Sequence record: PQ658967.1
DNA length: 44,071 nucleotides
Origin: Escherichia phage vB_EcoS-UDS3lw
Strand: one strand, 5' to 3'
Shown here: positions 39,997-40,506 of the stretch, piece after piece
How the letters are laid out: each line of letters begins with the position of its first letter
Numbering within the stretch: the first letter of the stretch is position 1
Notes under the pieces: generated by a model
The model's input: the letters and a program-made list of their open reading frames with translations, nothing else
The model's database searches: none
What the model was told of the DNA's origin: nothing
Made by a program: the position numbers and the translations under genes

Positions 39997-40506
39997 TTAA
40001 TCTTCCAGTTCGAAATAGGTTTCGACGATTTCTTTTAACTCTGTGTGGAAGTCTTCGACGTCGTCATCTTCCAGCTTGGCGATTGATTTGATCTCGAACG
40101 ATTCCAGCAGGTCGTCGAATTCGTCGTTCGCGTCGTCGTCATCACCACCGGCAATAATCGCGGCATACTGTTTGATTTCGTCGCGCATCTCTGCCAGCGG
40201 ATCGGCATCTTTCTTACCTTTTCCTTTCGCCGGTGCTTTCTTAGCCTTAGCCGGTTTTTCGTCTTCGGCATCTTCGTCGTCATCTTCTACGACTTCTTTT
40301 TTGGCCTTACCTTTCGCGGGTGCTTTTTTAGTTTTCGCCGGTGCTTCGTCTTCAGCGTCGTCATCTTCTACGACTTCTTTTTTCGCCTTAGACGGCTTCT
40401 TGTCTTCCTGCTTACCAACGGCAGCGCCAACGGTTTCATAATGTTTAGCGATGGTTTCCAGTGCTACTACGCCGCGAGTGATCAGGTTTACGATTTGCTC
40501 AAACAT
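39997..40506 (-). CDS. early acidic/basic repeat protein (170 aa), first gene of leftward operon
   Basis: ATG with GGAGA SD 7 nt upstream; two tandem repeats KKEVVEDDD..DAEDE.PAK.KKAPAKGK and strongly acidic C-terminus. Confidence 0.55.
   Translation of the reverse strand: MFEQIVNLITRGVVALETIAKHYETVGAAVGKQEDKKPSKAKKEVVEDDDAEDEAPAKTKKAPAKGKAKKEVVEDDDEDAEDEKPAKAKKAPAKGKGKKDADPLAEMRDEIKQYAAIIAGGDDDDANDEFDDLLESFEIKSIAKLEDDDVEDFHTELKEIVETYFELED

Follow-up and report, generated by a model that had tools for sequence, protein, structure and literature searches.

What is the function of the first gene in the leftward operon of a Dhillonvirus, and does its strongly acidic product block restriction? 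This question is raised by the genome of Escherichia phage vB_EcoS-UDS3lw (PQ658967.1), a Dhillonvirus and therefore an Escherichia coli siphophage. The complete stretch of 44,071 nucleotides (nt) was analyzed and is called the window here. The gene occupies positions 39997..40506 on the minus strand, encodes 169 amino acids (aa), belongs to PHROG 3127, and has 110 homologous clusters by homology search; it is labeled "hypothetical protein" in every annotated relative. Its product is referred to as the acid protein. A sequence-only reading had proposed it as a candidate for anti-defense or host takeover, because first-expressed acidic phage proteins are often DNA mimics directed against restriction or other DNA-binding host factors. 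The data presented here suggest a different, tentative answer: the acid protein may be a stoichiometric, non-enzymatic adaptor or chaperone of the phage replication and recombination module. Its gene is preceded by a structured leader RNA, which is treated thereafter.

The acid protein has an isoelectric point of 4.45 and a net charge of −22, with 50 aspartate plus glutamate residues versus 28 lysine plus arginine residues. The strongly acidic C terminus noticed in the sequence-only reading was recovered, with both quoted strings verbatim, and the last 56 aa have a net charge of −19. Also verbatim were the peptides quoted for two acid/basic repeats of approximately 27 aa; the units are 27 and 29 aa long and identical at 24 of 29 aligned positions. 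The underlying DNA repeat, noted at about 40215-40385, exists as well; Tandem Repeats Finder placed it at 40223..40390 (−) and scored it at 219, with 2.0 copies (one unit of 81 nt, one of 87 nt) that agree at 82%. This tandem repeat is far above chance expectation.

Alignments of 36 to 47 homologs and two AlphaFold2 models divided the acid protein into three parts. The first, aa 1 to 26 (40429..40506, −), is an amphipathic helix, modeled by AlphaFold2 from residue 2 to 26. It had the highest mean pairwise identity of the three regions (0.62), and R11, A15, and E17 were invariant across 47 sequences. The second, aa 27 to 100 (40207..40428, −), is a disordered polyampholyte linker that contains the tandem repeat, with a predicted local distance difference test (pLDDT) value of about 40. 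It is poorly conserved (identity of 0.37, 27% gaps) and has a charged-residue fraction of 0.60, a net charge per residue of 0.00, and a charge segregation 6 standard deviations above that of shuffled sequences. The third, aa 101 to 169 (40000..40206, −), is an acidic three-helix bundle with helices at residues 103 to 120, 124 to 136, and 150 to 165, an AlphaFold2 pLDDT of 84 to 93, and an identity of 0.51; this C-terminal domain is present twice in some distant homologs.

The repeat itself varies in copy number. Dhillonvirus-type alleles with zero, one, or two acid blocks were found in 6, 41, and 48 clusters, respectively (clustering at 90% identity), and complete homologs range from 115 to 179 aa with zero to two repeat units. 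Because natural alleles hold zero, one, or two copies, the repeat is a dispensable spacer of variable length. The design of the linker is kept across all lineages, an acid block followed by proline and then by a basic block, and no lineage has a linker far from neutrality, the net charge ranging from −0.07 to +0.06 for each residue. Motifs of the K/R-G-K/R and PAKK types recur in the linkers of all lineages, and some family members contain literal EPEPEPEP...KPK runs.

The genomic context was compared in 4 annotated Dhillonvirus records, 23 IMG/VR loci, and 5 metagenomic contigs with distant homologs. In all 30 loci with enough flanking sequence (30/30), the gene order was the acid protein gene, one or two small open reading frames (ORFs), a DUF2800 gene, a gene for an SSB (a single-stranded DNA-binding protein), and polA. 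The small ORFs include Nmad5 in some lineages. This order was kept at approximately 35% protein identity, in a locus with a primase of the D5_N type instead of AAA_25 (L007), in a locus where other genes of the operon precede the acid protein gene (L009), and in L063, a temperate phage that encodes a serine integrase. The tie that is conserved thus is that to the nuclease-SSB-polymerase module and not the position as "first early gene." In the window, the invariant downstream neighbor DUF2800 (38078..39508, −) is a PD-(D/E)XK nuclease (Pfam E = 5.8e-66), and the SSB is of the Enc34/gp2.5 type, with a coding sequence at 36970-37755 (−). Homologs of this SSB start with MAKVNLKN at 37755, whereas the ORF list extends the frame to a GTG at 37773. 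An 83-aa ORF of PHROG 4965, a family of unknown function, is located directly downstream of the acid protein gene (39697-39948, −); it is also kept in distant relatives between the acid protein gene and DUF2800 (E = 1e-7 to 1e-10).

The C-terminal tail of the SSB (36970..37215, −) resembles the linker of the acid protein. It contains four acid/basic blocks, DEDLDNDDEDEAPRKAKKSKRR, DDDDEDDKPRKSKKSKRR, DDDDDEEDAKPRKRRKPR, and DDEDEDDDEDEAPRKRRRR, and ends in a basic tip (...APRKRRRR; terminal tail peptide ...DEDEAPRKRRRR). Both proteins share the design of the unit, with ...EDEAPRKAKK... and ...EDDKPRKSKK... in the SSB versus ...EDEAPAKTKK... and ...EDEKPAKAKK... in the acid protein. Among the window ORFs of at least 60 aa, neutral, highly charged segments of this kind were limited to three, namely, the acid protein gene, the SSB with its tail, and an EK-rich ORF, a putative scaffold. 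The SSB tail is present with one to four copies in relatives, and in distant lineages, too, the tail is of the acid/basic kind and its tip is basic.

Moreover, the charge of the C-terminal domain of the acid protein and that of the SSB tip were negatively correlated (Spearman rho = −0.88, permutation P = 0.003), although this value comes from eight lineages, uses the last eight SSB residues as a crude measure, and is without phylogenetic correction. A tip of +6 was accompanied by a domain of −21, tips of +5 by domains of −19 and −13, a tip of +4 by −14, and a tip of +1 by −11. Two lineages, one of them with a classical acidic ...DEDGFLD tail, had a tip of −4 and a domain of −10, and the remaining lineage had a tip of −1 and a domain of −4. 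This is the pattern to be expected if the acidic bundle docks on a basic part of the SSB tail.

From the three-part architecture, the spacer repeat, the synteny, and the matching SSB tail, all of them observed, we infer the adaptor function. The acidic bundle would dock electrostatically, in the manner of a nucleic acid, on basic surfaces of the module proteins, with the basic blocks and the basic tip of the SSB tail being the best docking candidates, and the N-terminal helix may oligomerize or anchor the protein. Docking of the bundle together with oligomerization or anchoring by the helix would make the acid protein an adaptor or chaperone for the SSB or the replisome rather than a restriction inhibitor. 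In the classical case, an acidic SSB tail binds to a basic pocket, and docking on the SSB tail as outlined would reverse this polarity.

Several points weigh against the adaptor function, besides the narrow basis of the charge correlation. Binding of the acid protein to a partner is predicted only, and the role assigned to the N-terminal helix is a guess because AlphaFold2 places this helix at a pLDDT of 50 to 69. By its composition only, this helix was also considered as a speculative counterpart of the H-NS N terminus or as a putative membrane-targeting helix. The repeat copy numbers of the acid protein and the SSB tail do not co-vary. A distant homolog from MB78 carries the UniProt name "late protein." The DUF2800 protein of Bas14 is described as a nuclease for resection that resembles AdnA/RecB, acts as the trigger of a type IX retron, and can be truncated (bioRxiv 10.64898/2026.07.14.737667), so the module is not uniformly essential. 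Finally, neighboring genes for an exonuclease and an SSB of the annealing type would be expected just as much for an inhibitor of a host nuclease similar to Gam.

Such an inhibitor is the main alternative and a real, if smaller, possibility. The acid protein would then be a host-directed DNA mimic, acting like Gam or gp5.9 on RecBCD, on another host nuclease, or on a DNA-binding protein, and would be functionally coupled to the recombination genes of the phage. It would shield phage DNA in linear or concatemeric form during the action of the RecB-like phage nuclease and the annealing SSB. Phage lambda has the gene order gam-bet-exo, and gene 5.9 precedes gene 6 in T7. The local gene order in the window parallels both arrangements, with an extremely acidic, folded helical domain encoded by a promoter-proximal gene just ahead of the genes for a RecB/AdnA-like nuclease and a gp2.5-type SSB. 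Gam also has an N-terminal helix, which the strictly conserved helix of the acid protein may resemble. Both lambda Gam and T7 gp5.9 are likewise small, acidic, helical proteins encoded beside phage exonuclease and annealing genes, but in the searches neither of them, nor Abc2 or any PDB entry, resembled the acid protein in sequence or fold, and a coiled-coil dimer is not predicted for it. A linker resembling an SSB tail, together with a charge that co-varies with the SSB tip, would not be expected for a pure plug of a host nuclease. As a weak additional argument, Dhillonviruses are insensitive to P2 Old (efficiency of plating [EOP], 0.1 to 1). According to the BASEL authors, P2 Old may detect that RecBCD is inhibited during lambda infection (PMC8594841).

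The adaptor function could be extended to a more speculative model. The matched block tails may form a two-component electrostatic replication compartment that is phase-separated or multivalent, and separately, the leader may represent a new class of promoter-proximal phage RNA; this combined proposal is doubtful at present. In such a compartment, the N-terminal helix would make the acid protein multivalent, and the number of repeats would tune the assembly.

Even less probable is a modulator of host transcription or of the nucleoid. Here, RNA polymerase, H-NS, or HU would have a channel or surface for DNA binding plugged by the bundle while the basic blocks, similar to AT-hooks, touch DNA. 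Acidic plugs of this sort are region 1.1 of sigma-70, T7 Gp2, and T4 Arn. An acidic helical bundle, the recurrent basic motifs in the linkers, and reliance on the host RNA polymerase would agree with this function; no phage RNA polymerase was noted among the ORFs of the window or in the KarlBarth annotation. There was, however, no fold match to any such protein, and the strict linkage to the nuclease, SSB, and PolA genes, rather than to regulators, would be left unexplained.

The restriction-blocking function was evaluated with published plating data. Bas17 (KarlBarth), which encodes a one-repeat allele of the acid protein, is restricted about 600-fold by the type I system EcoCFT_I (EOP of 0.0016, two sites), a result obtained with the native phage and not with the isolated gene, and Bas15 reached an EOP of 0.006 with one site, while phages without sites plated at an EOP of approximately 1 (PMC8594841, S1 Data and S5 Table). 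Dhillonvirus genomes contain zero to two sites for either type I enzyme, EcoKI or EcoCFT_I, in approximately 44 kb (PMC8594841, S5 Table). This scarcity suggests avoidance of the sites and not inhibition of the enzymes. According to the BASEL authors, the sensitivity of Dhillonviruses to restriction systems of types I and II is also comparatively high (PMC8594841).

The similarity to T7 Ocr (gp0.3) and ArdA, all being small, very acidic, and encoded by the first gene behind an early promoter, ends at this level. In the acid protein, one half is disordered and contains basic blocks and the N-terminal helix is separate, no sequence or fold similarity to these proteins was found, and type I restriction still acts on the phages bearing it. 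Its folded acidic part, a bundle of about 65 aa, is far below the size of the Ocr dimer, which is elongated and has a B-DNA-like array of carboxylates, and even in distant phages, the family accompanies the replication module and not the variable accessory regions. A function as an anti-restriction DNA mimic of the Ocr/ArdA type against type I restriction-modification (and BREX), for which nothing but the composition and the position behind a strong promoter speaks, is therefore very unlikely, given the restriction of Bas17 and Bas15, the scarcity of sites, the comparative sensitivity of Dhillonviruses, and the absence of a Pfam, NCBIfam, or PDB match or an Ocr or ArdA fold. This case cautions against regarding every acidic first gene as one for an Ocr-like protein.

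In database searches, PHROG 3127, a family of unknown function, was matched over the full length (E = 2.8e-53, residues 1 to 169 versus profile positions 1 to 178 of 178). When 1.84 billion representative proteins were searched with a profile, only 60 clusters emerged, all of them standalone proteins of 31 to 212 aa and none fused to another domain. Pfam and NCBIfam contained no family matching the acid protein, PDB sequence and profile searches returned only noise (best E = 0.43), and Foldseek against the PDB gave generic bundle matches only (best E = 0.44). Foldseek against viral models retrieved only uncharacterized homologs, which were Gp46 of Edwardsiella phage eiAU, a protein of Salmonella phage St162, and the "13.88 kDa late protein" of MB78. 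None of the match lists (Pfam, NCBIfam, PDB, Foldseek) contained a known DNA mimic, and the PDB sequence, profile, and Foldseek comparisons revealed no sequence or fold likeness to Ocr, ArdA, Gam, gp5.9, or Abc2.

Two published Dhillonvirus proteins with roles related to defense were considered and rejected as identities. The anti-Tmn protein (PhiSMS22 ORF35; PMC11846954) does not agree with a protein that is all-helical plus disordered and encoded in every Dhillonvirus locus examined as well as in 175 phage records. Ksap1, the trigger of KpAvs2, differs in size and locus, being a 74-aa protein encoded between methyltransferase and phosphatase genes (PMC11564622).

Searches of the literature on Dhillonvirus, SECphi18, DUF2800, and MB78 yielded no functional data on the acid protein gene or its leader. 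In the literature that could be searched, the architecture of the acid protein, its fixed place in the replication module, and the match to the SSB tail are not described, while the general kind, a small acidic phage accessory protein that acts via its charge, is already known.

Comparison with other systems indicates where the architecture may have parallels. Tails of SSBs, such as the acidic tail of T7 gp2.5 or the linker plus tip of E. coli SSB, are also disordered, highly charged segments that mediate protein contacts in replication proteins. In the acid protein, such a segment is part of a separate protein without an oligonucleotide/oligosaccharide-binding fold and is charge-neutral with alternating blocks, and the tip of the SSB of this phage is basic, not acidic. 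The (Glu-Pro)n-(Lys-Pro)n spacers of the TonB type share the blocky acid-then-basic, proline-containing, non-globular character and a set length, but the acid protein is cytoplasmic, phage encoded, and without a membrane anchor, so that this is a likeness by composition only. The phosphoprotein P of Mononegavirales oligomerizes via a helix, contains extended disordered regions of acidic character, and tethers replication partners by a small three-helix bundle at its C terminus. This is an analogy of architecture only: P has an unrelated sequence and belongs to eukaryotic RNA viruses, and oligomerization via the N-terminal helix of the acid protein is a prediction.

Retron-Eco8, Borvo, and a type IX retron are known to be triggered by the Dhillonvirus SSB, polymerase, and DUF2800 nuclease, and Dhillonviruses (Bas14 to Bas18 of BASEL and SECphi18) are standard test phages for bacterial defense systems. 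A conserved, uncharacterized candidate partner encoded in the same operon bears directly on the behavior of these defense triggers. Binding of the acidic domain to the basic SSB tail, if it occurs, would be a version of the interaction between SSB tip and partner with reversed polarity and would provide a tractable system for charge-patterned disordered regions that organize a viral replisome. The acid protein and the leader are directly testable in phages used by many laboratories, and neither overturns a principle.

How the gene is expressed depends on its flanking signals. The promoter at 40703..40732 (−), TTGACA-N18-TATTAT, is of the sigma-70 type and agrees with the consensus at 11 of 12 positions; its −35 and −10 hexamers are kept in 12 of 12 aligned Dhillonvirus loci. 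Its designation as the best promoter of the region was correct, and the leftward replication operon indeed begins, on its promoter-proximal side, with the acid protein gene. The gene does not follow immediately downstream of the promoter, as had been stated, since a leader of about 190 nt intervenes, about 160 nt of which is a conserved structured element. An "early" expression of the gene is deduced from the promoter and should be understood as such. An intrinsic terminator is located directly 3' of the stop codon at 39962..39988 (−), with a stem at 39988..39969 comprising seven G-C pairs and followed by TCTTTTT. In all relatives checked, the stem is kept and the loop is variable, and the same terminator is annotated as such in phage PTXU06. 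With a strong terminator right after the stop codon, the gene constitutes a promoter-gene-terminator unit heading the operon. A strong promoter and a terminator after the gene would fit a higher expression level than that of the downstream enzymes, and the acid protein is probably abundant.

Translation starts from an ATG at 40506-40504 (−), as read from the sequence, with a Shine-Dalgarno sequence GGAGA at 40513..40517 (−), 6 nt 5' of the ATG, which is kept in all relatives, including the leader-less locus L014. A 229-aa ORF starting from an ATG at 40686 in some GenBank records was rejected. It is interrupted by a 1-nt deletion in one relative, and the whole segment is missing in another; since, in addition, all distant homologs begin with M-[FLI]-E, this extended ORF is regarded as non-coding. 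The region 39600-41300 matched 175 phage records at 80 to 99% identity, nearly all of them Dhillonvirus with genomes of 43 to 46 kb, and the closest record was that of Sodalis phage SO-1 (96.9%).

Another promoter-like sequence, TTGAAA-N17-AATAAT with an upstream TG, is conserved directly upstream of the main promoter at 40834..40806 (−). It is followed by a hairpin with a run of eight T residues at 40777..40743 (−), which would result in a predicted transcript of approximately 55 to 60 nt. This transcript contains UCUCUUAUUGGUUA, which is complementary at 12 of 14 positions, or 13 of 14 with one G-U pair, to the Shine-Dalgarno region of the acid protein mRNA at 40513-40526. By itself, the complementarity of UCUCUUAUUGGUUA to the Shine-Dalgarno region does not exceed chance, as about 0.3 such matches are expected. 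A simpler possibility is that the hairpin insulates as a terminator and the T-run serves as an UP element.

The leader RNA at 40538..40699 (−), with a core at 40548-40662, comprises about 160 nt and begins at approximately the transcription start. It is near-invariant in 11 of 12 aligned Dhillonvirus loci. In the remaining locus, L014 (IMGVR_UViG_3300045988_003101, upstream of 7001), the leader of about 165 nt is cleanly absent while promoter, ribosome-binding site, and terminator are retained, which makes this allele a ready-made natural control for the function of the leader.

Three nested helices with compensatory changes were identified in the leader, one of them occurring in seven different complementary versions, as well as a hairpin with a GNRA tetraloop and the long invariant blocks GGAGAGGRGYAACGCAGGGGC and GUGUCAGGAUUCCCAACCGUGA. 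In the covariance-model alignment, 96.7% of the cells were paired, and 10 of 19 pairs changed on both sides. The covariation score was 0.471 versus 0.189 for shuffled alignments, none of 500 shuffles reached it, and slid controls remained at or below 0.124. An independent MAFFT alignment gave 82 to 100% pairing for the three inner helices. The folding energy was not unusual (z = 0.6), so that the structure is deduced from covariation only. A cmscan of 39900-41000 against Rfam 15 with E values up to 1 found no match to the leader, with none inside 40538-40699, and a text-string search of the literature with the leader sequence found nothing. The leader is therefore a well-supported structured RNA without an Rfam family.

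Its distribution goes beyond the acid protein gene. The leader is present once in the window (nhmmer E = 1e-45; covariance model, 134.7 bits), once per genome in the stretches searched, and in 171 phage records. Pattern scans and BLAST found it also in Enterobacter phage Arya; Escherichia phages sortkaff, HeidiAbel_Bas97, and BUCT618; and Warwickvirus phage ityhuna, and phages tunus and BEBK14 match similarly. A scan of bacteria and archaea with one genome per species found it once, on a 42.8-kb contig of a metagenome-assembled genome that is probably of phage origin. In the contexts inspected, the leader is intergenic, mostly with a sigma-70-like promoter just upstream and often with a terminator before this promoter; in at least seven gene contexts, it starts at approximately the transcription start of a conserved promoter. 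The genes that follow are unrelated, for instance, a lipoprotein gene, small ORFs in a tail-gene cluster, or small ORFs after the primase gene. Relatives in which the acid protein gene is without the leader carry it elsewhere in the genome (L029 and L030 versus L051 and L056). An unannotated element with clear covariation in approximately 170 coliphage genomes that is attached to different genes in different phages is a ready candidate for a new class of regulatory RNAs.

The position of the leader suggests a role in cis, either in antitermination across the operon terminators, similar to put, or in stability or translation of the mRNA. The put RNA of HK022 consists of two stem-loops with about 70 nt in all. 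Like put, the leader is a structured RNA directly after a promoter that is presumed to be early and ahead of terminators, but it is longer, with about 160 nt, and built from nested helices plus a GNRA hairpin, and antitermination by the leader is putative only. Whether the downstream terminator is lost together with the leader was examined, and no such case was found, since L014 keeps the terminator. This argues against a strict dependence, and the existence of L014 also indicates that the leader is not indispensable. The leader could nevertheless be a cis-acting antiterminator or stabilizer that moves between phage groups within a promoter-leader cassette.

Two further observations concern the borders of the locus. 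The divergent genes to the right encode a helix-turn-helix protein (40907-41236, +) and a helicase-primase (41247-43511, +), and a consensus scan of 40733-40906 (+) found no good sigma-70-like promoter for them. At the other border, some Dhillonviruses, but not the window, contain a 37-aa acidic ORF (MDYEMRIMLDFIAENWAAFTAFCEERGDDPDEVYKQLGGED) between the acid protein gene and the terminator, as in L016 (7519-7650), L018 (7522-7653), welsh_32, and PTXU06_00060. The direct repeat GAAGATTAATAT flanks this insertion, which therefore looks moron-like.

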